Shown here piece after piece: positions 5,063 to 32,796 of a stretch of 34,509 bases of DNA. The DNA is taken from IMG/VR virus record IMGVR_UViG_3300045988_143498, positions 1-34,509 of that record. One strand, written 5' to 3'. Origin of the DNA: a virus. Every line of letters starts with the position of its first letter. The first letter of the stretch is position 1. Made by a program: the position numbers and the translations under genes. A model generated the notes under the pieces. It was not told the origin of the DNA. It searched no databases and was given only the letters and a program-made list of their open reading frames with translations.

Positions 5063-6305
5063 TGCAATGGCTATTGCCGAGATTGAAAAGCTTACTACTA
5101 GAAAAAGTGAAATCGCTAAAACAGTAGAAGAAAAAAGAAGTGCATTTGAAACTGCTGATGTTGAAACTAGAGACGCTTTAGTTAAGGAAGTTGAAAATCT
5201 AGTAAACGAAGGCAATTCAATTGATGAACAAATTACACAATTAGAAGAATTAAGAGCAAAATATGAGGAGCAAGAAAGAGCAATGGGAGCAGTCGGAAAT
5301 CTAACAGATAAGAATATTCAAATTAGAAAAGAAGCTAGAAAACAAGATGAAAACCCACTAGCAAGTAAGGAATACAACAAGGTATATGCCGACTACTTAA
5401 GAAGTGGTAATAAAGACAATTTAAACGTTTATTTAAGAACTGCAAATCTAGCTACTACAACAGACAATGTACCTATTCCAACAATTATGCAAGGCTTTGT
5501 AGAAACTGCATGGGAAAAGTATGGTAAGTTCTCAAGAATTGTAAGAGAAACATTTATTAAGGGTATTATCAATGTGCCTGTTGAAAAATCAGCTGATGAC
5601 GCAGTATGGCATGATGAAAACACAGCAGAACCAACTCAAGAAACTATTACATTAGATTCAATCATGTTAAAGCCTAAAATGATTAAAAAGTGGATTGCAC
5701 TTACTGATGAATTAATGGCAATGGCACCAGAGGAATTTTTGCAATATGTAGCTGATGAGCTTGTTTATAAGGTTGTATTAGCACTTGACCATGCAATTAT
5801 TTCAAGAACTGATGTAGGTGGTAACGGTGTTATCGGTATTGTTGGTAACGCAAATACTGCAACAGTAACAAAGGCTTTAAGCTTTAATGTAGTTAACGAA
5901 GCAATTGTCGAGATTGAAAGTGAAAACAACTTACTTGTTGCTATGAACAAGAAGACTTTCTTTCAAAACTTCATGGGCTTAACCGATACTACTGGTAGAC
6001 CAATTTATCAAATTATCGGTGAAAATACTGAAAAGGCTAGATATTTCTTAAATGGTATCCCTGTTGAATTTACAAACGCTATTCAAGCATATGACACAGT
6101 TGAAAACGGCGGTGTATATGCGGTAGTTGGTGACTTTGCAAGAGGTTATCGTTTGAATTACCCTAACGGTAGAGAAGTTTCAACATTAATCGACCCTTAT
6201 ACTGGTGCTACTGAAGATGTCGTTAAGATGCTAGGCAAGTTATTTGTGGCTGGTAATGTTGTTAAGTTAAAGCACTTTGTACAATTAAAGAAGCCTACTG
6301 AATAA
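5043..6305 (+). CDS. Major capsid protein (HK97 fold family)
   Basis: 420 aa with an N-terminal coiled-coil delta-domain-like region, positioned after the protease. Confidence 0.85.
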   Translation: MEKILNSAMAIAEIEKLTTRKSEIAKTVEEKRSAFETADVETRDALVKEVENLVNEGNSIDEQITQLEELRAKYEEQERAMGAVGNLTDKNIQIRKEARKQDENPLASKEYNKVYADYLRSGNKDNLNVYLRTANLATTTDNVPIPTIMQGFVETAWEKYGKFSRIVRETFIKGIINVPVEKSADDAVWHDENTAEPTQETITLDSIMLKPKMIKKWIALTDELMAMAPEEFLQYVADELVYKVVLALDHAIISRTDVGGNGVIGIVGNANTATVTKALSFNVVNEAIVEIESENNLLVAMNKKTFFQNFMGLTDTTGRPIYQIIGENTEKARYFLNGIPVEFTNAIQAYDTVENGGVYAVVGDFARGYRLNYPNGREVSTLIDPYTGATEDVVKMLGKLFVAGNVVKLKHFVQLKKPTE

Positions 6306-6316
6306 GGAGCTTTCTT

Positions 6317-6532
6317 ATGAAAAAGTGTGAAGTTTTAAAGGATTGCGCCCTTGCCATTGGTAAGGGTTCAATCGTTTTTGTTAGTGATGTGCAATATAAC
6401 ATTGCTAGTGAACTTTTAAAGCCTATTACAGAAGAAGTTAACGAAGAACCAATTGAAGAGGTAATCGAAGAACCAATTGAAGAGGTTAATGAAAAGCCAG
6501 TTAAGGAAGAAAAAAAGAATAAAAAGAAATAA
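6317..6532 (+). CDS. Small acidic protein with EEPIEEV repeats (head decoration or scaffold-like, unknown)
   Basis: 71 aa, RBS AAGGAG, and an internal 24-bp tandem duplication. Confidence 0.5.
   Translation: MKKCEVLKDCALAIGKGSIVFVSDVQYNIASELLKPITEEVNEEPIEEVIEEPIEEVNEKPVKEEKKNKKK
6443..6490 (+). repeat. 24-bp tandem duplication (2 copies)
   Basis: GAAGAACCAATTGAAGAGGTAATC followed by GAAGAACCAATTGAAGAGGTTAAT, 22/24 identical. It encodes the EEPIEEV(I/N) repeat. Confidence 0.9.
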
Positions 6533-6544
6533 AGGGGGTAGGTT

Positions 6545-6838
6545 ATGGCAATTGCCACAATAGAACAAATTAGAGATGATATCAAAAAAGTACTACCCAT
6601 TGCCGATACGGATGTCTATGATGAAGAACTATTGATTTTAACATCAGGCGCTATTCATAAATTAGAAAAAGAGGGTGTGCCTAACTCATTTGATTATGGT
6701 ACACCCCCTTATCATGATTATCTATGTTGTTTAAGATATCAAGTCGCTTCTGATATGGATTTGGATATTGATGTAGAAAGGTTGCGTATTCAATATCTAG
6801 CCCGTGTTAACACTTTAAGATGTACATTAAATCGATAG
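6545..6838 (+). CDS. Head-tail connector (gp6-like) protein
   Basis: 97 aa. The N-terminus (IEQIRDDIKK..DTDVYDEELLIL) resembles phage head-tail connector proteins, and the position after the capsid gene fits. Confidence 0.55.
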   Translation: MAIATIEQIRDDIKKVLPIADTDVYDEELLILTSGAIHKLEKEGVPNSFDYGTPPYHDYLCCLRYQVASDMDLDIDVERLRIQYLARVNTLRCTLNR

Positions 6839-7152
6839 CCGACCTTATCTATACTAGTCAAAGCAAAACTGAAAATGGTTCACCCGTTGAGCTTGAAATT
6901 GTCAAAGAAAAAGTCAAAGTAAACGAAACTGAAACATTTAGTAGTCGTTATTATGATGATGAACAGCGTTTAATGCGACTTTCAAGAAATCTAATAGTAC
7001 CAACCTATTATGTCAAAGATATTCAAGAGAACGGTTTAAATTACGAATTAAGCTATGTCAACTATGAGGGAAAAAAATACAAAGTAAGAAATATATTAAA
7101 AGTCAAGCATACACGATTAAATATGTTGCTTGATATACAGGAGTTAAGATGA
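6820..7152 (+). CDS. Putative head-closure / head-tail adaptor protein
   Basis: 110 aa, called by synteny in the head-tail joining block. Confidence 0.45.
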   Translation: MYIKSIADLIYTSQSKTENGSPVELEIVKEKVKVNETETFSSRYYDDEQRLMRLSRNLIVPTYYVKDIQENGLNYELSYVNYEGKKYKVRNILKVKHTRLNMLLDIQELR

Positions 7153-7478
7153 AAAGAAGTTTTACTCAAAAAGAATTATATGAATTACTTTGCACTAACC
7201 CCCTTAATGTTGATGTACACATTGGTGATTTAGATGATATGCAAGGAAAAGATTATATTTTCCTTGATTTTATTAATGATGTAGCTATTGGCTATGATGA
7301 TAACGGAGACTATCAAACAATTATTCAAATATCTGTTGCAACCAAAGATTTTGAAAAAAGGATAACTCTAACGGAGTTTATTAAAAAATATTTCTTTGCT
7401 CCAGCCACATATTCAAAAGATAGTGAAAGTGAATACTATATAGCTCAATTTACTTTAGGAGTGTTTATACACAAATGA
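7149..7478 (+). CDS. Putative head-tail joining / tail completion protein
   Basis: 109 aa, translationally coupled to its neighbours. The call rests on synteny only. Confidence 0.4.
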   Translation: MKRSFTQKELYELLCTNPLNVDVHIGDLDDMQGKDYIFLDFINDVAIGYDDNGDYQTIIQISVATKDFEKRITLTEFIKKYFFAPATYSKDSESEYYIAQFTLGVFIHK

Positions 7479-7861
7479 AGTATGTAGATATTGAGAAATT
7501 TGATAGGTTAGATATTAAACTAGACTACAAAGATATTGTTAGGTCATATGCAAAGAAAGCTCAAGACAAGTTAAAAGCCAATTCGCCTGATGATAAAAGA
7601 ATACAAGACCGCAAGAACGGTAAGTACAAAGATACATGGGCTATTCAAGAAAAAGATGGCAAATCATACTTTGAATGCAAGGTATGGAATGCTACAAATT
7701 GGCAATTAACACATTTATTAGAAAACGGTCATGTCATTGTTAACAAAAAAAATGGTGTTGGTTGGGCTAGCGCTAAACCACATATTAAACCTACTTATGA
7801 TAGTTTAAAACCAAAATTTGTAACAGCAATGACAACTGAAACAGAAATTAAAATCAAATAG
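7475..7861 (+). CDS. HK97 gp10-like tail-component protein
   Basis: 128 aa. The AKKAQDKLKANSPDD motif resembles the HK97 gp10 family, and the gene precedes the major tail protein. Confidence 0.5.
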   Translation: MKYVDIEKFDRLDIKLDYKDIVRSYAKKAQDKLKANSPDDKRIQDRKNGKYKDTWAIQEKDGKSYFECKVWNATNWQLTHLLENGHVIVNKKNGVGWASAKPHIKPTYDSLKPKFVTAMTTETEIKIK

Positions 7862-7874
7862 AAAGGATTTAAAG

Positions 7875-8471
7875 ATGGGAAGAATTATCCACGGTAATCA
7901 AAGTTTTGGTTATGCGCCTATTGTTACGGGTGAAAGTGATAGCCCTAAATTTGGTACACCAGTAATGCTTGCTGGTATGGTCAGCTCAACAATCGAAGTT
8001 GAACAAGACACAACATCAATTTATGCTGATAACGAGGTATATTGCAAGGTTAAGGGTGCTAAAGTTAGAACCGCTGAAGTTGCTTTTAGATATATCTCAA
8101 AAGAATATGCCGAGTTTTTAGGTTTTAAACTTAATCAAAACGGTATGCTTACAGATACAGGCGACTTTGCAAATCACTGTTTCTTTTTTGAGACAGTTGA
8201 AGAAGATTGCACAACTGGAACTGAAACTAGAACATTACATTACTTATACAATGTTAAGGGTGCAGAACCTACAAAGGAAACAAGCACTGATGAAGAAGAA
8301 GTTGAAGCAATGGAATTATCAGTTGAGTATACAGCTAGTGAAAGTGATTTTGTAGTTGATGATAATGGCAAGAAATGTCAATATGGCTACATTACAAGAA
8401 CCGAACAAAACGCTACTGTTTACGATACATTTAAACAAAAGGTATTATTACCAACAACAGCAATTAGTTAA
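7875..8471 (+). CDS. Major tail protein
   Basis: 198 aa with a strong RBS, directly upstream of the chaperone and tape measure genes, and followed by an attenuating hairpin. Confidence 0.75.
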   Translation: MGRIIHGNQSFGYAPIVTGESDSPKFGTPVMLAGMVSSTIEVEQDTTSIYADNEVYCKVKGAKVRTAEVAFRYISKEYAEFLGFKLNQNGMLTDTGDFANHCFFFETVEEDCTTGTETRTLHYLYNVKGAEPTKETSTDEEEVEAMELSVEYTASESDFVVDDNGKKCQYGYITRTEQNATVYDTFKQKVLLPTTAIS

Positions 8472-9135: not shown

Positions 9136-11193
9136 ATGGCTAATTCAGAAACAGGCATTACGATTAATTTTAGGGGCAATACAGCCGAGTTTGCGAGTGA
9201 TGTTGATGGTATTAATAAAGCTTTAAAACTATTGAGTAAGGATATCAAAGCGCTTAATAAAGAGCTTAAGCTAGACCCTACAAATGTAGAAACATTAAAT
9301 AATAAGTTTGATGAGCTTAAACAGAAACAAGAATTATTAACAAAACAAGCTAAAAACTATAGAGAAGCTATAGAAAACATGGGTACTATTGCTAACAATG
9401 AAGACCTTAATAAATTAGCCGACTTTCAAGGCAAATTAGCTGATGTTGAGGTTCAATTAAGAAAAGTCAATGAGGAAATGAACCTTGTCAATGTTGAAAG
9501 CATTAAAAACTTTTCATATAACCTAGATAAAGCTTGCAAGGTGCTTGATAATGTAGGTAATGCTCTTGATAGAGTAGGCAAAGCCTTATTACCTTTAAGT
9601 ACTGCAAGTGGTTTGGCTTTAGGAACGGGCATTAAATATAATCTTGAATTAGAAAAAACTCAAGTAGCATTAGAGAGAATTTTAGGCACTCAAGAAGAAG
9701 CTAATAAAGTCATGCAAGAGTTTATTAGCTTTAGTGATAAAACACCATTTAGCCCTAAAGAAATAACTCGTTGGGCGCAAATGATGATGGCTGGTGGTGC
9801 AAGTGTTGAAGAAGCAAGAAAAACCATTGAAGCATTAGGCAATGCAGTATCAGCCACAGGCGGTGGCACTGATGAAATGAATAGAATGATACAAAACCTT
9901 CTACAATTTAGAGGTGCTTCACCAGAACAAAGAGACTTAAAGCAATTCCAATATGCTTATATCGATATATACGGTGCTTTGAGCGACTATATGGGTGAAA
10001 ACGCAAGATTATTAAAGTCTAGTGAAATATCTTATGAGGATGTTATAGGAGCTTTAATTAAGGCTAGTGAAGAGGGCGGAAGATATGCAAATGGTATGGC
10101 TAGTGCCAGTGAAACAACCGCCGTTAAAATGGAGAAATTGCGCTATCAATTACAACAATTGGCTGGAGATTTAGCGGAAAGCTTAATGCCTACAGTTCAA
10201 GCAATGGTTGATAAGTTAAAAGAATTGATTGATAGATTTAAAGCATTAGACCCACAAACAAAGGAAATGATAACTAAAGCCTTATTACTTACTACAGCAT
10301 TAGCGCCTACTGTACTACTGTTATCCAAGCTCATATTAGGATTTAGTGGGTTAGGCAAGGCATTTAATGCAATTATAAAAAATAAAGATATTTTAATGTT
10401 TCTAGCAAATCTAACAACAAAATTTAAAGATTTAAGTACTCTAGTGTCTACCAAGTCAGCAGGCTCAAAACTATTAAGCTTTATTCCAAAATTAATATCT
10501 CTAACGGGTGGTTTGTTGCCCGTTATTGCGTTGGTTATTGGTGCATTGGTTTTGATGTATAAAAAGAGTGAAGCATTTAGATTTGCAATCAATAATCTTG
10601 TTAACGCAATAATGAATATATTAAAGCCTGTTTTCAATGTATTAGTAGGAATTATTAATAATATTGTCGTGCCAGCGTTTAAATGGCTATGGGATATCGT
10701 TGGCAAAGTGGCTAGTGTTTTAGGTAGTGTATTAGCACCTTTTATTGATTTGGTAACACTTGCTATTGGACTTTTGAACATAACTATCAATACGTGTATT
10801 GAGGTTTTTAAAGCCTTATGGGAAAAGATATCAGAAACCACAGCGTTTCAAGCGTTAATGATAACATTTAAAGACATTGGGGAAGCAATCAATTCGGTAA
10901 TTGAAAAGGTTAAAGCATTATTTGGCTGGTTTGGTAATTTAATCGATAGAGCAAAAGAGTTTTTAGGCTTGAATGACAAGATAAGCACTCATGATTACAA
11001 CGGTGTAACACATGGCGGAGGTGGTGGTCATGCGTGGAGCGGTGGCTTTGACAAGTACAATAGTGGTGGCTTTGCAGTTAATACAACAATCAATGTTAAT
11101 AACAATGGTTCACAAATTACTCGTAGTGAAGTCAACAGATGGGCTGATGTAATGGTTGATAGAGTGAATGAAAGATTAGGAAGGTTGGTGTAG
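9136..11193 (+). CDS. Tail tape measure protein
   Basis: 685 aa, the largest tail gene. It has a coiled-coil N-terminal half, hydrophobic segments and a glycine-rich C-terminus. Confidence 0.9.
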   Translation: MANSETGITINFRGNTAEFASDVDGINKALKLLSKDIKALNKELKLDPTNVETLNNKFDELKQKQELLTKQAKNYREAIENMGTIANNEDLNKLADFQGKLADVEVQLRKVNEEMNLVNVESIKNFSYNLDKACKVLDNVGNALDRVGKALLPLSTASGLALGTGIKYNLELEKTQVALERILGTQEEANKVMQEFISFSDKTPFSPKEITRWAQMMMAGGASVEEARKTIEALGNAVSATGGGTDEMNRMIQNLLQFRGASPEQRDLKQFQYAYIDIYGALSDYMGENARLLKSSEISYEDVIGALIKASEEGGRYANGMASASETTAVKMEKLRYQLQQLAGDLAESLMPTVQAMVDKLKELIDRFKALDPQTKEMITKALLLTTALAPTVLLLSKLILGFSGLGKAFNAIIKNKDILMFLANLTTKFKDLSTLVSTKSAGSKLLSFIPKLISLTGGLLPVIALVIGALVLMYKKSEAFRFAINNLVNAIMNILKPVFNVLVGIINNIVVPAFKWLWDIVGKVASVLGSVLAPFIDLVTLAIGLLNITINTCIEVFKALWEKISETTAFQALMITFKDIGEAINSVIEKVKALFGWFGNLIDRAKEFLGLNDKISTHDYNGVTHGGGGGHAWSGGFDKYNSGGFAVNTTINVNNNGSQITRSEVNRWADVMVDRVNERLGRLV

Positions 11194-20258: not shown

Positions 20259-21281
20259 CTATTGCGTGTTTTTGATTTTATCTATCATATCAATAACTGT
20301 TTTTCCTTCATCATCCAGTACATGAATATAATTTTCAATTGTAGTCGATATAGAGCTATGCCCTAGCCTTTTTGATACCGTGGCTATATCAACACCCTTT
20401 GAGAGCAATAAAGACCCGTGAGAATGCCTTAAACTGTGTATAGTGATGTTTTTATTAATATTGGCTTGCTTCAAGCAGTTCTTTAAATGTCTTCTTAATG
20501 TTTCATTGCTTAAAGGAGTATCATCACCAAACAAATATACACCTTGCCTTTGAGCCAATGGAACTAACAAATTATAAGTATCATCATCAAGAGCGACTTT
20601 CTTTATAAGGCTAGAAGTTTTAGTGCCGACTTTAACAGAGCTTTCAGTTAACCTCATAGTACGCTTTATTACTAACATATGGTCGTTCAAGTCTTCTTTA
20701 TACAAAGCCCTTAATTCACCTCTTCTACATCCCGTCCAATATGCAGTATAAAAGAACGCATATATAATAGGGTTCTTCTCAAATTCAATCATCTTATTAA
20801 ACTCTTCTAATGTGATAACTTCTTTCTCTTGTTTCTCGTTTGGGTATAGTTTTATCACTGTTGAGATATTTTTGATGTCATAAACCTCATAAGCATAGTT
20901 GTAGACCGCTTTAACGTGTCCTAGTATGCGATTTTTAGTTGTGGGGTGTAAATACTCGTTTTTTTGAAATTCGTTTCTAAAATAGGTTAAATTAGCTTTG
21001 GTGATGTTTTCTAGTTTCTTATCTTTGAAAGGAATAAATCGCTCCATATAAGATAAACGATTATTTTTTTCTTCTTGTGAGCAACTTAAACCCTCCAACC
21101 ACTCTTTAAACATATCCTTAAAGGTGATAGGTGACTTTACCTTTGATACCTCTAACTCAAATCTTTTTGCACTAGCTTTATCAAGGAAACCCCTTTTGGT
21201 GGTTGATACCAACTTGCCTGCGTTATTCTTCTGATAGTACTTAACATAATAAGTACCTCTTTTCTTATCTTTGCAAATCAT
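20259..21281 (-). CDS. int: Tyrosine integrase (phage integrase family)
   Basis: 340 aa with an N-terminal SAM-like/arm-binding region. Catalytic motifs: TGCRRGEL, HSLRHSHGS, LGHSSISTTIENYIH. Confidence 0.92.
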   Translation of the reverse strand: MICKDKKRGTYYVKYYQKNNAGKLVSTTKRGFLDKASAKRFELEVSKVKSPITFKDMFKEWLEGLSCSQEEKNNRLSYMERFIPFKDKKLENITKANLTYFRNEFQKNEYLHPTTKNRILGHVKAVYNYAYEVYDIKNISTVIKLYPNEKQEKEVITLEEFNKMIEFEKNPIIYAFFYTAYWTGCRRGELRALYKEDLNDHMLVIKRTMRLTESSVKVGTKTSSLIKKVALDDDTYNLLVPLAQRQGVYLFGDDTPLSNETLRRHLKNCLKQANINKNITIHSLRHSHGSLLLSKGVDIATVSKRLGHSSISTTIENYIHVLDDEGKTVIDMIDKIKNTQ

Positions 21282-21511
21282 TTTTTATACACATACTTTC
21301 TTACTTCTTTTAAAATCTCATTAACATCAACATTGTAGATATCGCAAAGTTTGAATAAAACATTAATATCCATACCTCTATTACCTGTTTCATAATGGGC
21401 ATAACAAGAACGAGAAACACCCAATCTATCCGCTATTTCTTGTTGAGATAAGTTGCGTTCATTACGGATATTTTTTAAAACAGCACCTAGTTTTTTGTTA
21501 AACAACGTCAT
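21278..21511 (-). CDS. cI-like repressor (XRE-family HTH)
   Basis: LKNIRNERNLSQQEIADRLGVSRSCYAHYETG is an HTH_3 motif. The gene has an ATGA overlap with int and is divergent from the cro-like gene. Confidence 0.8.
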   Translation of the reverse strand: MTLFNKKLGAVLKNIRNERNLSQQEIADRLGVSRSCYAHYETGNRGMDINVLFKLCDIYNVDVNEILKEVRKYVYKK

Positions 21512-23899: not shown

Positions 23900-24559
23900 G
23901 TGGTCAAAGTGGCTAATAAACGAATGTTCACAATGAAGATAGTTGACAGTGACGCTTTTCTAGAAATGCCACTATCAACACAATGTTTATATTTTCACTT
24001 AAACATGAGGGCTGATGATGATGGCTTTATTGGAAATCCAAAACGTATATGTAAGTTAGTTGGTTGTAATGATGATGACTTAAAGTTATTAATTGCTAAA
24101 AGGTTTGTGCTTGTATTTGATAACGGAGTTATTGTTATCAAGCACTGGAGAATGCACAATACTATCCAAAAAGACAGATATGTACCAACAACATACAGTG
24201 ATGAGTTTAAGCAATTAGGCATAAAAGACAATAAATCTTACACCTTATCACCTATGGAAACAAAATGTATACAAAATGTTTCCACAGATATAGATATAGA
24301 TAAAGATATTAATAAAGATATAGAGAATAAGATTATAGATTTATTATCATCATCAAAAGATATTTTTATAAGTATCAAATTGGAAAATGAGTACGAAGAA
24401 ACTTTGAAGATGATGATTAGAGCAGGACAAATCACAAAAAAAATACCATCACAAGGAAGATTGGAAGACTTGATGAAAGAAATGATTTTTGATAGACAGA
24501 ATGTTTGTAACAAACAGGGTTATTTGATTGAATGCTTTAGAAACGAGAGAGAACAATGA
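23900..24559 (+). CDS. Putative replication initiator / replisome organizer
   Basis: The N-terminal domain (FTMKIVDSDAFLEMPLSTQCLYFHLNMRADDDGFIGNP ... IKHWRMHNTIQKDR) resembles phage replication organizer proteins. An AT-rich repeat tract lies inside the gene. Confidence 0.6.
   Translation: MVKVANKRMFTMKIVDSDAFLEMPLSTQCLYFHLNMRADDDGFIGNPKRICKLVGCNDDDLKLLIAKRFVLVFDNGVIVIKHWRMHNTIQKDRYVPTTYSDEFKQLGIKDNKSYTLSPMETKCIQNVSTDIDIDKDINKDIENKIIDLLSSSKDIFISIKLENEYEETLKMMIRAGQITKKIPSQGRLEDLMKEMIFDRQNVCNKQGYLIECFRNEREQ
24261..24340 (+). repeat. Internal direct-repeat tract (candidate origin of replication)
   Basis: CAAAATGT x2 (24261-68, 24272-79), then GATATAGATATAGATAAAGATATTAATAAAGATATAGAGAATAAGATTATAGAT (24287-24340) with AGATATAGA x3. 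Confidence 0.45.
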
Positions 24560-25131: not shown

Positions 25132-25464
25132 ATGGCAACAAAAATATGTGAAAGATGTGGGAAGAATAAGTTAATGCTTTCATGGGAAAGCTTATGTTAT
25201 GAATGCCAGAAGATAGTTGAACTTGAAAAAATTCAAGCTAATATTTTGGAAGCAACAGATGATGAAGAAGTGGACACCTTTTCAAGCGATTATGTTATTT
25301 GCCCTTATTGTGGAGAAGCTATGGACAATTGTTATGGATATGAAGATTTTCCTGAACTTTATGAAGAGGGAGACCATCTCGTTACTTGTCCTAACTGCGA
25401 TAAAGAGTTTGTTCTTGAAACATCAATATCTTACTATTATGAAACGCACAAGAAAGGAGAATAA
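25132..25464 (+). CDS. Double zinc-ribbon protein
   Basis: CERCG..CYECQ and CPYCG..CPNCD give four CxxC pairs. I chose the start at ATG 25132 (RBS AAGGAG); the track has GTG 25123. Confidence 0.6.
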   Translation: MATKICERCGKNKLMLSWESLCYECQKIVELEKIQANILEATDDEEVDTFSSDYVICPYCGEAMDNCYGYEDFPELYEEGDHLVTCPNCDKEFVLETSISYYYETHKKGE

Positions 25465-25466
25465 AA

Positions 25467-25874
25467 ATGTTAAATTATGATGAACACAAAGAGGAAATTG
25501 ACAAGATATTTAAAGATGGCAAATCATTATGCGAAATAAGCCAAACAATTTTAAAAGAGCATTGTTTAGGTTGTAATTCTAATAAAGAAAAGTACGCTAA
25601 TTGCAAAATTAAAACACTTGAATGGTTATGCCAAGAGCATATAGAACCAGTATTAAGTGATGAAGCTAAAACTTATTTAAAAACAATTATAGAGCCTGTT
25701 GAAGCTGTGGCAATTCGTAAAATATCAGATTATAACATTGGAACTTATAAATTAGATTTTTTTATCAAAGATGGTTATATCACTATTAAATTCAAAACAG
25801 GCACTAAATTATATGAATATTTTGAAGACATGGAATTAAACAAAGCATATACCTTAAAGGAGTTAGGATTATGA
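25467..25874 (+). CDS. Cys-rich paralog family member P1 (135 aa)
   Basis: Shares LEWL..EHIEPVLSDEAKTYLKTIIEP and the C-terminal MELNKAYTLKELGL with P2-P5. Its N-terminus is more diverged. Confidence 0.6.
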   Translation: MLNYDEHKEEIDKIFKDGKSLCEISQTILKEHCLGCNSNKEKYANCKIKTLEWLCQEHIEPVLSDEAKTYLKTIIEPVEAVAIRKISDYNIGTYKLDFFIKDGYITIKFKTGTKLYEYFEDMELNKAYTLKELGL

Positions 25875-26275
25875 AAAATATCGAAAAATATAAAGATGAA
25901 ATAAAAAGCAAAATCAAAGAAAAAAGTACATTAGACTGTGCGATTGCAGATTTAAGGGGGAATGCTTGTGATGAATGCTTTCGATGTACCGACTGCGGTT
26001 TAAAATCGTTAGATTGGCTACTTGAAGAATATAAAAAACCCCTTTTGACTGATGAAGGCATTAAATTTTTAAAAGAACATATAAAACAAAGTGGTGCGAT
26101 AGCTGTATACATTAAAATCACAAAAAAAGTAGCTAATTATTATGAATATCGTTTGGAAATTCATTTAGAGACAGGCTTGATATCGATACCGTTTGTGGAA
26201 AAAAGCAATCTATACGAAATGTTTAAAAACATGGAAATTGGTGTAAGTTATGCACCAGAGGATTTAGGATTATGA
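25871..26275 (+). CDS. Cys-rich paralog family member P2 (134 aa)
   Basis: N-terminal MKNIEKYKDEIK, then CxxCxxCxxC, LDWLLEEYKKPLLTDEG, and a C-terminal ...EDLGL. Confidence 0.6.
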   Translation: MKNIEKYKDEIKSKIKEKSTLDCAIADLRGNACDECFRCTDCGLKSLDWLLEEYKKPLLTDEGIKFLKEHIKQSGAIAVYIKITKKVANYYEYRLEIHLETGLISIPFVEKSNLYEMFKNMEIGVSYAPEDLGL

Positions 26276-26553
26276 CATTGATTTATAAATTAATTTTATG
26301 TCATTTAGTTGGTGACCATGTACTCCAACTAGACCATATAGCAAAGTCTAAGGGTAATAACTTGTATCACTTGTTAGTTCATTGCCTGCTATATACATTG
26401 CCTTTTTACATTATGTTTGGTTACGACTGGCGTTTATCAATTATATTTTTAGCACATACAATTGTTGATTTACTAAAAGCTAAATATAAAAAGATAAGCT
26501 ATAAAACAGACCAATTAATCCATTTCGTTACACTTTTAATTTATGTTTTTTAG
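26272..26553 (+). CDS. DUF3307-like small membrane protein
   Basis: The HLVGDHVLQ motif and hydrophobic helices. The gene interrupts the paralog array exactly at a junction. Confidence 0.55.
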   Translation: MTLIYKLILCHLVGDHVLQLDHIAKSKGNNLYHLLVHCLLYTLPFYIMFGYDWRLSIIFLAHTIVDLLKAKYKKISYKTDQLIHFVTLLIYVF

Positions 26554-26568
26554 AAAGGAGTTAGGGCT

Positions 26569-26964
26569 ATGAAGAATATCGAAAAATATAAAGATGAAAT
26601 AAAAGCCGAGCTTGAAAAAGATAAGACTTTAGGATGTGTGGTTAATAAATTAATGGGGAATACATGTGATGACTATTCAAAATGTAATGATTGCTATTTA
26701 AAAGTATTAGATTGGCTATTACAAGAATGCAAAGAGCCTATATTGGATGATATAGAAAAAGAATATTTAAGTGCAGTGATTAAGCCATTTAGAAAAAGAA
26801 TTAAATCAATCAAAAAAGCTTATTATTCAGGCAATTCAGCGTACATTAGTATAGCAATGAATGAATGTGAGCATATTTTCTTACCATATTTCAATTTAAA
26901 TAGTGGAATGTATAAAAGAATGGAAATTAACAAAGATTATACTTTAAAGGAGCTAGGACTATGA
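26569..26964 (+). CDS. Cys-rich paralog family member P3 (131 aa)
   Basis: MKNIEKYKDEIK ... LDWLLQECKEPILDD ... MEINKDYTLKELGL. Confidence 0.6.
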   Translation: MKNIEKYKDEIKAELEKDKTLGCVVNKLMGNTCDDYSKCNDCYLKVLDWLLQECKEPILDDIEKEYLSAVIKPFRKRIKSIKKAYYSGNSAYISIAMNECEHIFLPYFNLNSGMYKRMEINKDYTLKELGL

Positions 26965-27389
26965 AAAATATCGAAAAATATAAAAATGAAATACTTAAAT
27001 ATGCTGGTTACCAACATTCATTAATGTGCTTAATTTATGAAAACATTATGAAAAAAAATGACTGCACTGGTTATTGTTCCAAATGTAAAAGGGAAACGAT
27101 TGAATGGTTAACTAGTGAATACAAAGAGCCTATTCTAACCGATAAAGAAAAAAGATACTTAAAGAATGTGATTGAACCTAAAAAGGATGATATTACATGG
27201 ATTAGAAAATGGTGCTTTTATAAAGGCACAGAAAGCGAATATACTACCGTTACTGTTTATGCAAAACATCCAGCCTTTACATCACCTAATTCGTTATGGG
27301 TATTACTAGATTTTATAGTAACTGAAGAAATGCCATTTAAAGGCATGGAACTAGAAAAAGCATACAGTCTTGAGGAGTTAGGGCTATGA
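26961..27389 (+). CDS. Cys-rich paralog family member P4 (142 aa)
   Basis: MKNIEKYKNEI ... IEWLTSEYKEPILTD ... MELEKAYSLEELGL. Confidence 0.6.
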   Translation: MKNIEKYKNEILKYAGYQHSLMCLIYENIMKKNDCTGYCSKCKRETIEWLTSEYKEPILTDKEKRYLKNVIEPKKDDITWIRKWCFYKGTESEYTTVTVYAKHPAFTSPNSLWVLLDFIVTEEMPFKGMELEKAYSLEELGL

Positions 27390-27796
27390 AGAATATTGAA
27401 AAATATGAAGAAGTAATTAAAAAACAAATTGCTGAATTTAGAGATATACCTTGTATAGCTAAAGAGTTAAAAGATGGCGGTTGCTGTGAATGTCGAAATT
27501 GTGTGACTTGCAGTATGGAAATGTTACATTGGCTATCACAAGAGTATAAAGCGCCTGTTTTAACCGAAGAAGGCAAAGCCTATTTATCAAACTTATTAAA
27601 GCCATATGGTTTAGGTACTTGTGCATTTCAATTCAACTTATCAGAAGTTGTTAAAAACGATACATACAAATTAACTATTGCTGATGAGTATGGAATAATC
27701 ATAAATCTAGCTATTAGACAAGATAGTGAAATGCAAGAACTATTTAGAAAAATGCAATTCAACAAGGTATATGCAGTGAAGGAGTTAGGGCTATGA
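27386..27796 (+). CDS. Cys-rich paralog family member P5 (136 aa)
   Basis: MKNIEKYEEVIK ... CCECRNCVTC ... LHWLSQEYKAPVLTEEG ... FNKVYAVKELGL. Confidence 0.6.
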   Translation: MKNIEKYEEVIKKQIAEFRDIPCIAKELKDGGCCECRNCVTCSMEMLHWLSQEYKAPVLTEEGKAYLSNLLKPYGLGTCAFQFNLSEVVKNDTYKLTIADEYGIIINLAIRQDSEMQELFRKMQFNKVYAVKELGL

Positions 27797-27996
27797 TAGA
27801 TAAACCTACAAGACTAGTACCTAACAAGCACTACAAGAAAGAGGTTCTTATGATGTGCGATAAACAAGACATAATCGATTATTGCCACGAAATGGAACAA
27901 AGGTTATTTCAAGCAATGCTGATAATCGATAAGTTAATCGAACGAAAAGAATTAAACGATAAAGACAAAGCGTTGTTAGAGGAAATCTATGGATAA
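27793..27996 (+). CDS. Hypothetical protein (67 aa)
   Basis: Starts at the last conserved junction (AAGGAGTTAGGGCTATGA) and is translationally coupled to the next gene. Confidence 0.5.
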   Translation: MIDKPTRLVPNKHYKKEVLMMCDKQDIIDYCHEMEQRLFQAMLIIDKLIERKELNDKDKALLEEIYG

Positions 27997-28894
27997 TGAA
28001 TGGCTTTTGTTTGATAGGGTAGAAAAAATCAAACAAATCATAAATCAATATGGCGAGGATAACTTCTATATATCATTCTCTGGTGGTAAAGATAGTACGA
28101 TATTACACCATTTAGTGGATATGGCATTACCCGATAACAAGATACCGAGAGTATTTAGTAATACGGGGATTGAATACAATATGATATTAGAGTTTGTAAA
28201 AGACCAAGCCATTAATGATAGTAGATTTAAGATAATATATCCTAAAAAGAATATTAAAAACATGCTTGAAAATGTTGGTTATCCATTCAAATCAAAGCAA
28301 CATTCTCATATTGTAGGAATATTCCAAAGAAGCGGTAAAAGTTTATCAGTTAGAAAATATTTAAAAGAAGTTGAAGGTAATAATGTGATATGTTGCCCTA
28401 AAAAATTGCAATATCAATTTACAGACAATTTTAATATTAAGTTAAGTGATAAATGTTGTTATGAATTAAAAAAGAAACCATTTAAACAATGGGAAAAAGA
28501 AAACAACAAAACCATTGCAATCACTGGAATGCGAACCGAAGAGGGTGGGCAAAGAATGGGGATGAATTGTATTGTTATGGATAAAGATAAAAAAATTATA
28601 AAGTTTCATCCATTATCTGTTGTTTCTAACGAATGGGAAGAATGGTTTATTAAAAAATTCAATATAGAACTATGTAAGTTATATTATCCACCCTATAACT
28701 TTGAACGCACAGGATGTAAAGGTTGCCCGTTTGCACTACAGTTACAAGAACAATTAGATTTAATGGAAAAACTTTTACCCAACGAAAGAAAACAATGTGA
28801 ATTTATATTTCAACCTGTTTACGAAGAGTATCGAAGAATAGGTTATCGACTAAAACCATATAAACAAATGAAATTATTGGAGGAGATAAGATGA
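27989..28894 (+). CDS. PAPS reductase / PP-loop ATP-pyrophosphatase family protein
   Basis: ISFSGGKDSTILHHL is an SGGxDS PP-loop. The C-terminus has the cysteine pair RTGCKGCPF. 301 aa. Confidence 0.8.
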   Translation: MDNEWLLFDRVEKIKQIINQYGEDNFYISFSGGKDSTILHHLVDMALPDNKIPRVFSNTGIEYNMILEFVKDQAINDSRFKIIYPKKNIKNMLENVGYPFKSKQHSHIVGIFQRSGKSLSVRKYLKEVEGNNVICCPKKLQYQFTDNFNIKLSDKCCYELKKKPFKQWEKENNKTIAITGMRTEEGGQRMGMNCIVMDKDKKIIKFHPLSVVSNEWEEWFIKKFNIELCKLYYPPYNFERTGCKGCPFALQLQEQLDLMEKLLPNERKQCEFIFQPVYEEYRRIGYRLKPYKQMKLLEEIR

Positions 28895-29731: not shown

Positions 29732-29976
29732 AATATAAAGTTCATTTTGATTTAATATTTGATGATGAGGTAGAAGCCGAGAATGAATATGAAGCATTTA
29801 AGTTAGCTTTTCATAGTGCGATTGTAGGCGGTGCATGGAACTATCGTGTTGAGGAACTTGAGGACAATGAAACTGATGATGGAATTAAATTCTATTTTGA
29901 CACCGAGAGTGAAGGATATAAAGAAATTGTTAGACAAGTGGAAAATTTGAGTGAAAGTAGAGGTTCTAAATGCTAA
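29728..29976 (+). CDS. Hypothetical acidic protein (82 aa)
   Basis: ATGA coupling. No recognised motif. Confidence 0.5.
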   Translation: MKYKVHFDLIFDDEVEAENEYEAFKLAFHSAIVGGAWNYRVEELEDNETDDGIKFYFDTESEGYKEIVRQVENLSESRGSKC

Positions 29977-30443
29977 ATAATGTAAATCTAATTGGTCGAG
30001 TGACTAAAGAAATTGAATTAAGAAAAACACAATCAAATAAAAGTGTAGTCAAGTTTACGTTGGCGGTTGATGATGGCAAGGATGGGCAAGGGAATAGTAG
30101 AACACAATTCATTGATTGCCAAGCATGGGAAGGGTTGGCTGAAACTATTCAAAAGTATGTGTTAAAAGGTGATATGGTAAACATCAACGGTAAGCTAGTC
30201 AATAACAACTATGAAAGCAACGGAGTTAAGTATTATTCTTATCTAGTATTGGCAAGTGGGATGACTTTACTACCTAACAAGAGACTTAATGAACAAAAGC
30301 CACAGCAAGTGGCTAATCAAGTAACTAATCAATACGAACCACAATACAATGAACCACAATACCAGCAACAGTCAATTAGAAGTGATGGAAGAAATGTTAC
30401 AGGCGGTGTAACCTTTGAGCCTGATGATTTACCGTTCTATTAA
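29970..30443 (+). CDS. ssb: Single-stranded DNA-binding protein
   Basis: OB-fold N-terminus (NNVNLIGRVTKEIELRKT..KFTLAV ... FIDCQAWEGLAE), a Q/P-rich linker and the acidic tip DDLPFY. Confidence 0.9.
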   Translation: MLNNVNLIGRVTKEIELRKTQSNKSVVKFTLAVDDGKDGQGNSRTQFIDCQAWEGLAETIQKYVLKGDMVNINGKLVNNNYESNGVKYYSYLVLASGMTLLPNKRLNEQKPQQVANQVTNQYEPQYNEPQYQQQSIRSDGRNVTGGVTFEPDDLPFY

Positions 30444-31620: not shown

Positions 31621-31815
31621 ATGGATATCGTAGGTATATTATTACTAGTCTTGATTGTGATTATGTTTGTTAACTTTGTTGGCACTTTAAAAGAAATGGA
31701 AGAGGTCATTGATGAAATTATTGAAAAACACAACACCACGGTTAACATGGTTAATACGTTAAATAATAGAATTAAAGATGTAGCAGAGGAGCAAAATGAA
31801 CGAAAAAGAAGTTGA
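31621..31815 (+). CDS. Small membrane-anchored protein (64 aa)
   Basis: N-terminal TM helix (IVGILLLVLIVIMFVNFVG). Confidence 0.45.
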   Translation: MDIVGILLLVLIVIMFVNFVGTLKEMEEVIDEIIEKHNTTVNMVNTLNNRIKDVAEEQNERKRS

Positions 31816-32212
31816 AGCCTTTAAAAATAGAATAAGAAATTACAACTTTCATATCGAACAAATAGAACTAATCAATGATGAAATGAACATAGTGTTCTAT
31901 GACTTAACAGGGGTTAAGGGTGCAAGCTATGACTATCACGCACCATGTACAAATCAAGCCATTAAGAACGAACATAGAACGGATTTATTGGAAAAGCTAG
32001 AAGAACTAAAGGAAAAGAAAAAAGCCCACCAAGAAGAACTAGACAAGCTCAATGCCATGTTAAATCAATTGAACAAGACCGATAGAGAATTAGTAAAAAA
32101 GAAGTTAATAAATGGCTTTACTTATGATGAATTATCTAATCAATCATACATGGCAAGAACCACTATTCAATATCGCATTGATAAAGCTATTAAAGATATC
32201 AGATACTTATAG
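31796..32212 (+). CDS. Sigma-70 region-4-like / ArpU-RinA-type late gene regulator
   Basis: The C-terminus (DRELVKKKLINGFTYDELSNQSYMARTTIQYRIDKAIKDI) resembles a sigma region-4 HTH. It is the last gene of the early region, before the packaging genes. Confidence 0.6.
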   Translation: MNEKEVEAFKNRIRNYNFHIEQIELINDEMNIVFYDLTGVKGASYDYHAPCTNQAIKNEHRTDLLEKLEELKEKKKAHQEELDKLNAMLNQLNKTDRELVKKKLINGFTYDELSNQSYMARTTIQYRIDKAIKDIRYL

Positions 32213-32241
32213 GGATGTTAAAATTTGACATCCCTTTTTTT
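32212..32241 (+). terminator. Rho-independent terminator of the early operon
   Basis: GGGATGT (32212-18) pairs with ACATCCC (32228-34) and is followed by T7. The right arm is also the first copy of the GACATCCC array. Confidence 0.7.
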
Positions 32242-32525: not shown

Positions 32526-32796
32526 GTAAATTAGTAAGTCTAGTAAGTAACTTTAGTAAGTACAGTAACTTGAAGTAACCTGAAGTAACTCATGCAGTAA
32601 GTGGTGCAGTAACTCGCAGTAACTCATGCAGTAAGTGGCAGTAAACTGCAGTAACTCAAAACTGCAGTAACTGAAAACTGCAGTAACTGCAGTAACCGAG
32701 AAAATTGCGGTAACTCAAAAAGTCTGTAACTGCAGTAACTGAAAATTGCAGTAACTCAAAAGTGCGGTAACTTAAAAAGTAACTTACTTTTGTAAG
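32526..32796 (+). repeat. Array B: ~24 same-strand copies of GTAA(C/G/A), mostly within (TGC)AGTAACT
   Basis: By my count there are 24 GTAAS/GTAAA cores in 271 bp. Six are exact TGCAGTAACT (605, 647, 663, 679, 731, 747; offsets within 32xxx). The period is 9-18 bp. The array runs into the 3' end of the RHH gene 32784..32954. Confidence 0.9.

Follow-up and report, generated by a model that had tools for sequence, protein, structure and literature searches.

The window analysed here covers positions 1 to 34,509 of IMG/VR virus record IMGVR_UViG_3300045988_143498 and carries five related cysteine-rich genes (P1 to P5; Table 1) in a variable cassette array. The phage is temperate and siphovirus-like, with Bacillota of the human gut as hosts, and the array is part of its early operon. 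Each protein is built from an N module and a C module that are joined by a conserved linker. Comparison across the family indicates that the N and C modules assort independently with breakpoints in the linker, which defines a two-module combinatorial family. This re-assortment at the mid-gene linker is the main axis of diversification and was missed by the initial annotation, which had described genes with conserved ends and one variable middle. The locus is best explained, in our view probably correctly, as a cassette array of a two-module family with exchange at three joints, the products of which may act as early binders or inhibitors. The mode of diversification is a clear and unusual variant of known phage mosaicism.

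The five genes are genuine paralogs, as first proposed, and all ten pairs are significant by BLASTP (E 6e-9 to 9e-21 with the database size set to 1e8; 27–37% identity). The motifs listed in the initial annotation are likewise found in the alignment, including the N-terminal MKNIEKY.., the Cys cluster, the WL..EYKEP.LT.E segment and the C-terminal M-E-..-Y-..-ELGL. The genes are not consecutive as described there, and an open reading frame (ORF) for a DUF3307 membrane protein separates P2 from P3. The described overlap of each stop with the next start (ATGA) holds at the other array junctions; the ATGA of P2 leads into DUF3307, and P3 starts 16 nt past the DUF3307 stop. The array accounts for 2,330 of the 34,509 nt (~6.8%), close to the 7% first estimated. 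At the DNA level, P2 and P3 differ at one position in the first 36 nt, and over the best 74-nt window the P1/P2 junction is 89% identical to the P3/P4 junction, both in agreement with the earlier estimates. The mean pairwise nucleotide identity per codon column is 0.75–0.80 at the 5´ end, ~0.60 at the 3´ end and 0.29–0.46 in the interiors, which bears out the conservation of the ends. The single variable middle does not stand, as a third conserved segment (WL.xEYKEPxLTxE) with an identity of 0.60–0.67 is located mid-gene; the pattern is therefore joint-module-joint-module-joint. The 5´ joint of P1 is diverged and reads MLNYDEHKEEI, with 61% identity of its first 36 nt to those of P2–P5, compared with 86% among P2–P5.

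P4 is a clean chimera of two alleles from other genomes. Its N half has 85% nucleotide identity to positions 10637–10915 of locus L038, and codons 1 to ~60 match the F19 allele of that locus apart from about a dozen differences (member types of the family, as clustered at 70% identity, are given as F numbers). The C half is 94.9% identical to L005 5601–5874; from codon ~68 on, the match is to F42, an L005 allele whose own N half bears no relation to P4, at 95%. In the codon-level alignment, the switch falls within GAATACAAAGAGCCTATTCTAACCGATAAAGAAAAA, which encodes EYKEPILTDKEK. A second combination is observed in the F75 member of L033, which consists of a P5-like N module and a P3-like C module. 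The N half of P3 and DUF3307 align at 84% to L033 F75, and the C module of P3 resembles the F75 C module.

The same behavior is seen in 271 full-length family proteins. N cores that are at least 70% identical accompany C cores that are at most 35% identical in 634 pairs and the reverse is found in 562 pairs, with extremes of 100% versus 17%. Clustering at 60% yields 127 N types and 125 C types in 161 combinations, and one N type occurs with 13 C types. An unbiased change-point scan, in which a sharp switch was defined as at least 85% identity on one side and at most 35% on the other, returned 812 pairs. The switch is located in alignment columns 46–75, which correspond to the linker, in 69% of these pairs, and inside a module body in less than 1%. 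The P1 type forms an exception: all 46 of its proteins combine N0 with C0. Diverged joints explain this lack of shuffling only half, for the 5´ joint of P1 is diverged and its linker shows no greater divergence than the other linkers.

The 3´ joint is a junction element of 17–18 nt, AGGAG-YTAGG-NYT-ATG-A, in which the codons for (K/E)-E-L-G-L-stop serve as Shine-Dalgarno sequence, spacer and overlapping start. The triple role ascribed to this sequence in the initial annotation is confirmed: element 1 encodes the ELGL and stop of P1, the Shine-Dalgarno sequence and the start of P2. Six copies of AGGAGYTDGRNHTATGA are present in the window and each lies within the array, compared with 0.07 occurrences expected by chance. 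Among all fetched loci, 89 of 110 complete family genes end with the ATGA overlap, irrespective of the next gene. The same element also borders unrelated cassettes, namely DUF3307, the 77-aa c4 family and the conserved 67-aa gene c6. The junction carries a Shine-Dalgarno sequence and a start for any next gene, and whole cassettes can hence be gained, lost or exchanged with translational coupling intact. Integron-type attC sites were considered and rejected, as the junction element lacks dyad symmetry; the sole inverted repeat in 25400–27900 is an AT-rich palindrome at 26272–26299.

The c4 protein (~77 aa), which is absent from the window, terminates with LKELGW, and the coding sequence of this tail is the AAGGAGTTAGG junction that the Cys-rich family also uses. 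Its gene is multi-copy and interleaved with the Cys-rich family in relatives of the window and in another phage lineage (L030 10405–10638; L050 5296–5517 and 6774–7007; three copies in L006). The idea that c4 is a stand-alone C module was rejected, with an hhalign probability of 5–7% and an alignment restricted to the ELG tail.

Close relatives of the window were found among human-gut metagenome contigs (Hadza, MERR22 and others), which are collinear with it and have 88–98% identical flanks. Seven array architectures are present in this group. The window reads zinc ribbon, P1, P2, DUF3307, P3, P4, P5, c6; the others read P1, c4, F27, DUF3307, c6 (L030); P1, c4, F27, DUF3307, F75 (L033); P1, c4, F19, DUF3307, c6, PAPS-reductase (L040); P1, c4, F19, P5-type, c6 (L045); P1, c4, F42, F19, P5-type, c6 (L046); and P1, c4, F42, a 46-aa ORF, c6 (L005). 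A second phage lineage with a different terminase (L050–L053) has the order c4, F, F, F, c4, F, c6. P1 is the first member in every close relative, the P2 slot before DUF3307 is filled by F27 or F19 alleles, and orthologs of P5 are found in L045–L049. Copy number and order thus vary as anticipated for a cassette array, with near relatives holding two to four members of differing types and orders. Across the 53 loci with at least one member, the copy number is 1 in 18 loci, 2 in 18, 3 in 10, 4 in 6 and 5 in the window only.

The boundaries of presence/absence polymorphism between the relatives coincide with the repeated short junction sequence. BLAST alignments of the window with its relatives end at the junctions 25874/5, 26572, 26966, 27389/90 and 27779–88; other alignment ends fall in the P4 linker, at 27117 and 27244. 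DUF3307 is 97–99% identical to its counterparts, with both flanking junctions included. L030 carries an exact hybrid where DUF3307 meets c6: the left flank matches junction 3 of the window and the right flank junction 6. P3–P5 (26573–27796) therefore represent an insertion or deletion bounded by an 18-nt direct repeat, AAGGAGTTAGGGCTATGA. A diversity-generating retroelement was also considered and rejected, as the reverse transcriptase of some relatives is located near tail and lysis genes and the array varies by whole modules. This enzyme (344 aa, RVT_1, resembling that of diversity-generating retroelements) is encoded beside tail and lysis genes at L038 561–1595 and also in L041, L043 and L044; the ORF list of the window contains no ORF of reverse-transcriptase size in the equivalent region.

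From these patterns we infer that the exchanges are homologous recombination events at the joints. Homologous recombination would act at three short conserved joints, the 5´ ~36 nt, the linker and the 3´ 17–18-nt junction element, and the N and C modules are re-assorted combinatorially. The probable agent is a relaxed homologous recombination machinery of the phage or the host. Phage recombinases act on short, diverged homologies (PMC3945230), which renders recombination at such joints feasible.

The initial annotation had suggested that the array diversifies by junction-mediated exchange. The variation in copy number and order and the exchange boundaries at the junction element agree with this suggestion; the conserved ends as a product of homogenisation do not. 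Single-copy genes in distant phages also start with M(L/K)NIEKYK(D/E)EI and end with KGME..K.YTLEELGL, and the ends are conserved at the protein level throughout the family, single-copy genes included, and are not homogenised within the array. Identical synonymous codons show a modest excess over expectation at both the 5´ end (0.77 versus 0.54) and the 3´ end (0.68 versus 0.51), and the 3´ conservation is also explained by the embedded Shine-Dalgarno sequence and the overlapping start codon.

Some of these data weigh against a role of the joints in recombination and are shared with a simpler explanation, in which the array arose by tandem duplication and divergence only and the ends and linker reflect folding or function and the ribosome-binding site. 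The termini and the linker are conserved family-wide even at single-copy loci, and their conservation therefore needs no recombination role in itself. The Shine-Dalgarno/start constraint, together with codon bias near the start, accounts for most of the synonymous excess. The ~30% of sharp switches that map to the edges of the conserved termini lie where change points are expected from conservation alone. Within the window, the linkers are ~64% identical as DNA with exact runs of 5–12 nt, and crossovers between linkers of one array would therefore need very relaxed recombination, or would take place mainly between more similar alleles of different genomes. Duplication and divergence do not account for P4 as a clean chimera, for the hundreds of pairs with one module 85–100% identical and the other at most 35% identical, for a junction element that borders non-homologous cassettes and has a non-coding copy, or for the limits of the P3–P5 insertion/deletion, which fall exactly in two junction copies. 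The explanation is already largely refuted by the chimera, module and junction evidence and is very improbable.

The family to which P1–P5 belong is large. A profile of the five paralogs matched more than 3,255 proteins in a collection clustered at 90%, with no informative name among the best 120 listed. At 50% identity, the family comprises 1,798 clusters (E ≤ 1e-3), and the best 150 listed are nearly all stand-alone proteins of 125–150 aa that are matched end to end. In these searches, the family is confined to phage and prophage DNA, including IMG/VR contigs, human-gut metagenome contigs and four contigs of metagenome-assembled genomes (a Bulleidia genome among them). No family match was found in the plasmid collection. 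A protein search of deposited phages gave one weak match, a single copy in Solobacterium phage SMO_1P that directly follows two orphan DNA methyltransferases. No Pfam-A or NCBIfam family exceeds the gathering threshold for P1–P5 and none recurs among 140 members, and sequence-profile searches of the PDB gave noise only (E ≥ 0.16). The initial annotation had not recognised the family, and profile searches indeed assign it to no characterised housekeeping family.

The sole library match of the family is PHROG phrog_22292, with E values of 2.2e-3 (P1), 1.3e-5 (P2), 4.5e-3 (P3), 2.8e-9 (P4) and 7.5e-4 (P5); it is also matched by 102 of 140 diverse family representatives, with a best E of 3e-18. 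The match covers the N module and linker only (profile positions 1–89 of 155; protein residues 1 to ~72–86). The entry carries no function and misses the variable C modules and the array organisation of the family.

Partial and rearranged members were also encountered. One family copy (L016 6396–6782) is split into a 61-aa N-module ORF and a 63-aa C-module ORF, P0162 and P0216 consist of the N module only, and P0177 has a replaced N terminus; the N and C modules may exist on their own, or these split and partial forms may be pseudogenes. In the metagenomic protein P0167 (190 aa), a partial HNH_3 (E 6.6e-4) and a NUMOD1 (E 2.9e-7) domain replace the C module and the protein still ends in KELGL. 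It represents a homing-endonuclease insertion that has decayed or, alternatively, a true replacement of the module. In another phage lineage (L024, L025, L027 and L029, ~5860–8140), a single member is located directly upstream of holin-like and ~345-aa endolysin-like genes, a late, moron-like position instead of the early operon.

The AlphaFold2 models of P1 and P2 agree with each other (pLDDT 89.5 and 87.4, respectively). In the models, the N module is composed of three helices and a lower-confidence loop that bears the cysteines. It is followed by the extended linker (WL.xEYKEPxLTxEE), conserved in the alignments, and by a C module with an alpha-beta-beta-beta-alpha topology. DSSP assigns helices 61–74 and 113–118 and strands 78–85, 93–99 and 103–108 to the C module of P2, and helices 65–78 and 114–119 and strands 82–87, 93–100 and 103–110 to that of P1. 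The protein closes with the conserved tail M-E-x-x-K-x-Y-T-L-E/K-E-L-G-L. Isolated beta-bridge residues in the models (position 2, linker, tail) suggest that the three conserved segments pack against each other. The cysteines of the N core have the majority consensus C-x9-C-x4-C-x2-C. Of 136 representatives, 101 have at least four N-core cysteines, 35 have zero to two and none has three. Such all-or-none counts are the signature of a putative Cys4 metal site, present in ~74% of N modules and lost in some lineages.

These features could also be those of nucleic-acid-binding regulators or processing factors, in which a zinc-binding helical domain and a domain resembling the double-stranded RNA-binding domain (dsRBD) act with several specificities, encoded by the paralogs, on RNA or DNA of the phage or the host early in infection, and not as inhibitors of host defence proteins. 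The topology of the C module in both models, the Cys4 site in most N modules and the NUMOD1 DNA-binding domain in the C-module place of P0167 are consistent with such a function. Foldseek searches with both models gave recurrent weak matches to dsRBDs (RNase III, TRBP, ADAR2, NF90, DHX9), SRP9/14, L38e and YfiA, and the topology of the dsRBD, SRP9/14 and L38e matches is that of the C module. The fold matches are all non-significant (E ≥ 0.07, target-normalised TM-score ≤ ~0.5), those to dsRBDs having E 0.19–0.73 and a target-normalised TM-score of 0.15–0.42. Moreover, the proteins are mildly acidic to neutral (pI 5.5–7.5) and not basic, no helix-turn-helix or known RNA-binding profile is matched, and P0167 is possibly just a decayed homing-endonuclease insertion. 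We consider this function unlikely. AcrF10 and AcrVIA1 appear in the Foldseek PDB lists at E 0.5–0.9, which is noise, and the BFVD database returned uncharacterised phage proteins only.

As early binders or inhibitors, the proteins may be directed at variable targets, in the host or in competitors, and serve counter-defence or the takeover of the host, a tentative assignment that we hold with less than even confidence. It fits the early region, the restriction to phages, the raised ratio of nonsynonymous to synonymous substitution rates (dN/dS), the non-redundant repertoires and the nearby DNA-modification genes. The dN/dS of P1 orthologs is ~0.46, compared with 0.04 for the DnaD-like gene and the Xer-like recombinase, 0.06 for the PAPS-reductase, 0.07 for c6, 0.10 for DUF3307 and 0.18 for a 117-aa gene. 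The 32 multi-copy loci contain 86 co-resident pairs, of which none shares an N type (≥50% identity) and only one shares a C type. This pattern would fit functional non-redundancy or an instability of long direct repeats, and each genome would keep a non-redundant set of early-expressed N/C combinations. A more specific version, in which the locus is a combinatorial module library that builds two-part binders, each neutralising or hijacking a different host-defence or competitor target as a modular counter-immunity repertoire, appears rather unlikely at present.

Several results stand on the other side of the counter-defence or host-takeover assignment. A dN/dS below 1 also fits relaxed constraint alone. 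The comparison of the co-resident pairs with pairs between loci, about 7% of which share a type, is confounded by sister contigs. No PADLOC profile matches P1–P5, and Foldseek searches of the PDB with the P1 and P2 models returned nothing at E < 0.07, which leaves no confident fold match.

The targets could instead lie in competition among phages and mobile elements, where the proteins would serve as a repertoire for superinfection exclusion, as anti-repressors, as satellite de-repressors or in a manner similar to immunity proteins, and not in evasion of host defence. The occurrence of the family in temperate phages and prophages only, its variable, non-redundant and type-structured repertoires and the moron-like members near lysis genes in some lineages (L024–L029) agree with this proposal. 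The array of the window is located within the lytic early operon, however, and does not belong to a moron that has a separate promoter and terminator and is expressed in lysogens, and no toxin- or repressor-like partner gene co-varies in the examined loci. A role in competition of this kind is quite unlikely.

Several known systems resemble the array in part. Polymorphic toxin loci (CdiA-CT / Rhs-CT), which have orphan cassette arrays, and viral multigene families, for example the baculovirus bro genes, share a motif that marks the swap point between constant and variable parts and tandem alternative cassettes that are rearranged via repeated junctions. In contrast to these loci, no toxin, immunity, Bro-N or KilA-N domains were detected here, and every copy is a complete, translationally coupled gene in which the two halves both vary. 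WhiB-like (Wbl) proteins of actinobacteria and their phages are small, mostly helical Cys4 iron-sulfur proteins with a CxxC pair that are encoded in phage early regions. The family described here is likewise small and mostly helical, with four cysteines including a CxxC pair and a position in the early region; it differs in that it has no Pfam Whib match, belongs to another host phylum, has an additional C-terminal alpha/beta module and lacks the cysteines in about a quarter of its members.

For the mode of exchange, the closest relation is to the long-standing proposal of Botstein-type exchange at short conserved boundary sequences in phage mosaicism, in which boundaries are rarely identifiable at mosaic junctions (PMC3029335). 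Here, heterologous cassettes share a flanking short sequence at the exchange boundaries. The boundary is explicit and reiterated six times in 2.3 kb, it serves simultaneously as coding sequence, Shine-Dalgarno sequence and overlapping start, and an extra joint is located inside the genes. Recent and ongoing shuffling of fragments between diverged or unrelated phage proteins has been described and interpreted as driven by an arms race, with receptor-binding proteins, endolysins, DNA polymerases and replication proteins highlighted (Smug et al., 2023; PMC10684548). Protein fragments are shuffled in the present array as well, with the difference that the units are the two halves of a small early protein, which in addition occurs as tandemly amplified copies.

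The locus is thus an unusually clear case of exchange at short boundary sequences (PMC3029335), in which protein tail, Shine-Dalgarno sequence and start codon coincide in one boundary and the genes are shuffled internally at a second level. A family of ~1,800 clusters (50% identity) in human-associated phages with hallmarks of an arms race is a candidate for counter-defence and host-takeover screens, and the natural N/C chimeras offer a built-in means to map the half that determines specificity. If the counter-immunity version is true, the array would be a modular counter-immunity repertoire in gut and oral Bacillota phages and a natural, explicit example of a Botstein linker, and recombination would assemble new two-part binders and arrays with expression undisturbed.

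Table 1. Coordinates of the array, its joints and the surrounding genes in the window.
Feature	Position	Strand	Basis or remark
Terminase genes	531–2970		Gene tables of relatives
Integrase, 340 aa	20259–21281	−	
cI-like repressor	21278–21511	−	
cro-like gene	21627		First of early operon
Short second tyrosine-recombinase-like gene (Xer-like), 212 aa	22699–23337	+	phrog_216 E 2e-46
DnaD-like replisome organiser	23900–24559		
Double zinc-ribbon ORF, 113 aa	25123–25464	+	Immediately upstream of P1
P1, 135 aa, N0/C0 type	25467–25874	+	ORF; AlphaFold2 model
Linker of P1	25623–25676		Equivalent to P4 linker joint
Junction element 1, AGGAGTTAGGATTATGA	25858–25874	+	P1/P2
P2, 134 aa, N5/C1 type	25871–26275	+	ORF; AlphaFold2 model
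Linker of P2	26015–26068		Equivalent to P4 linker joint
Junction element 2	26259–26275	+	P2/DUF3307 boundary; one mismatch
DUF3307 membrane protein, 93 aa	26272–26553	+	Interposed heterologous cassette; PF11750 E 6.4e-9; phrog_2470 E 7e-15
Junction element 3	26556–26572	+	Non-coding upstream side, after DUF3307 stop; ribosome-binding site and start of P3
P3, 131 aa, N1/C2 type	26569–26964	+	ORF
Linker of P3	26713–26766		Equivalent to P4 linker joint
Junction element 4	26948–26964	+	P3/P4
P4, 142 aa	26961–27389	+	Chimera: F19-type N module and F42-type C module
Linker joint of P4, WLTSEYKEPILTDKEKRY	27105–27158	+	Site of P4 chimera crossover
Junction element 5	27373–27389	+	P4/P5
P5, 136 aa, N3/C3 type	27386–27796	+	ORF
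Linker of P5	27530–27583		Equivalent to P4 linker joint
Junction element 6	27780–27796	+	P5/67-aa gene (c6)
c6, conserved 67-aa gene	27793–27996	+	After array in most sampled close relatives and second phage lineage
PAPS-reductase-like protein	27989–28894	+	PF01507 E 2.5e-18; PADLOC BrxP 2e-17, also SspD, DndC
SSB (single-stranded DNA-binding protein) gene	29970–30443		Downstream of array, early operon
ArpU-like late regulator	31796–32212		End of early operon
Strong intrinsic-terminator-like hairpin	32211–32235		Directly after ArpU-like gene; closes early operon

The window has 32% G+C, and its size and gene order fit a complete temperate siphovirus-like genome. The early operon opens with the cro-like gene and ends with the ArpU-like regulator; between them follow the DnaD-like organiser, the array and the SSB gene, and a MazG-like gene is also located in the operon downstream of the array. 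No terminators internal to the array were found and no internal promoters stand out, promoter-like sites being at the level of shuffled sequence. The window contains no tRNA or Rfam family, and searches of deposited phage genomes (INPHARED) in near and distant modes gave no DNA match. No Pfam, PHROG or NCBIfam family matches c6.

The zinc-ribbon ORF has no counterpart in any close relative sampled, in which a 72-aa gene abuts P1, and this absence identifies it as a further accessory insertion at the array edge. The PAPS-reductase gene is present in L040, L042, L045 and L047 and absent in L030, L039 and L046; its profile matches suggest a phage DNA-modification enzyme for self-protection. The second recombinase-like gene is retained in all close relatives within the early lytic operon, in addition to the integrase, and could encode an Xer-like dimer-resolution protein or an excisionase-like partner. 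Approximately 450 nt downstream of the hairpin that closes the operon, reiterated ACTGCAGT(T) motifs (32661–32693, minus-strand patterns) could form a packaging or regulatory site.

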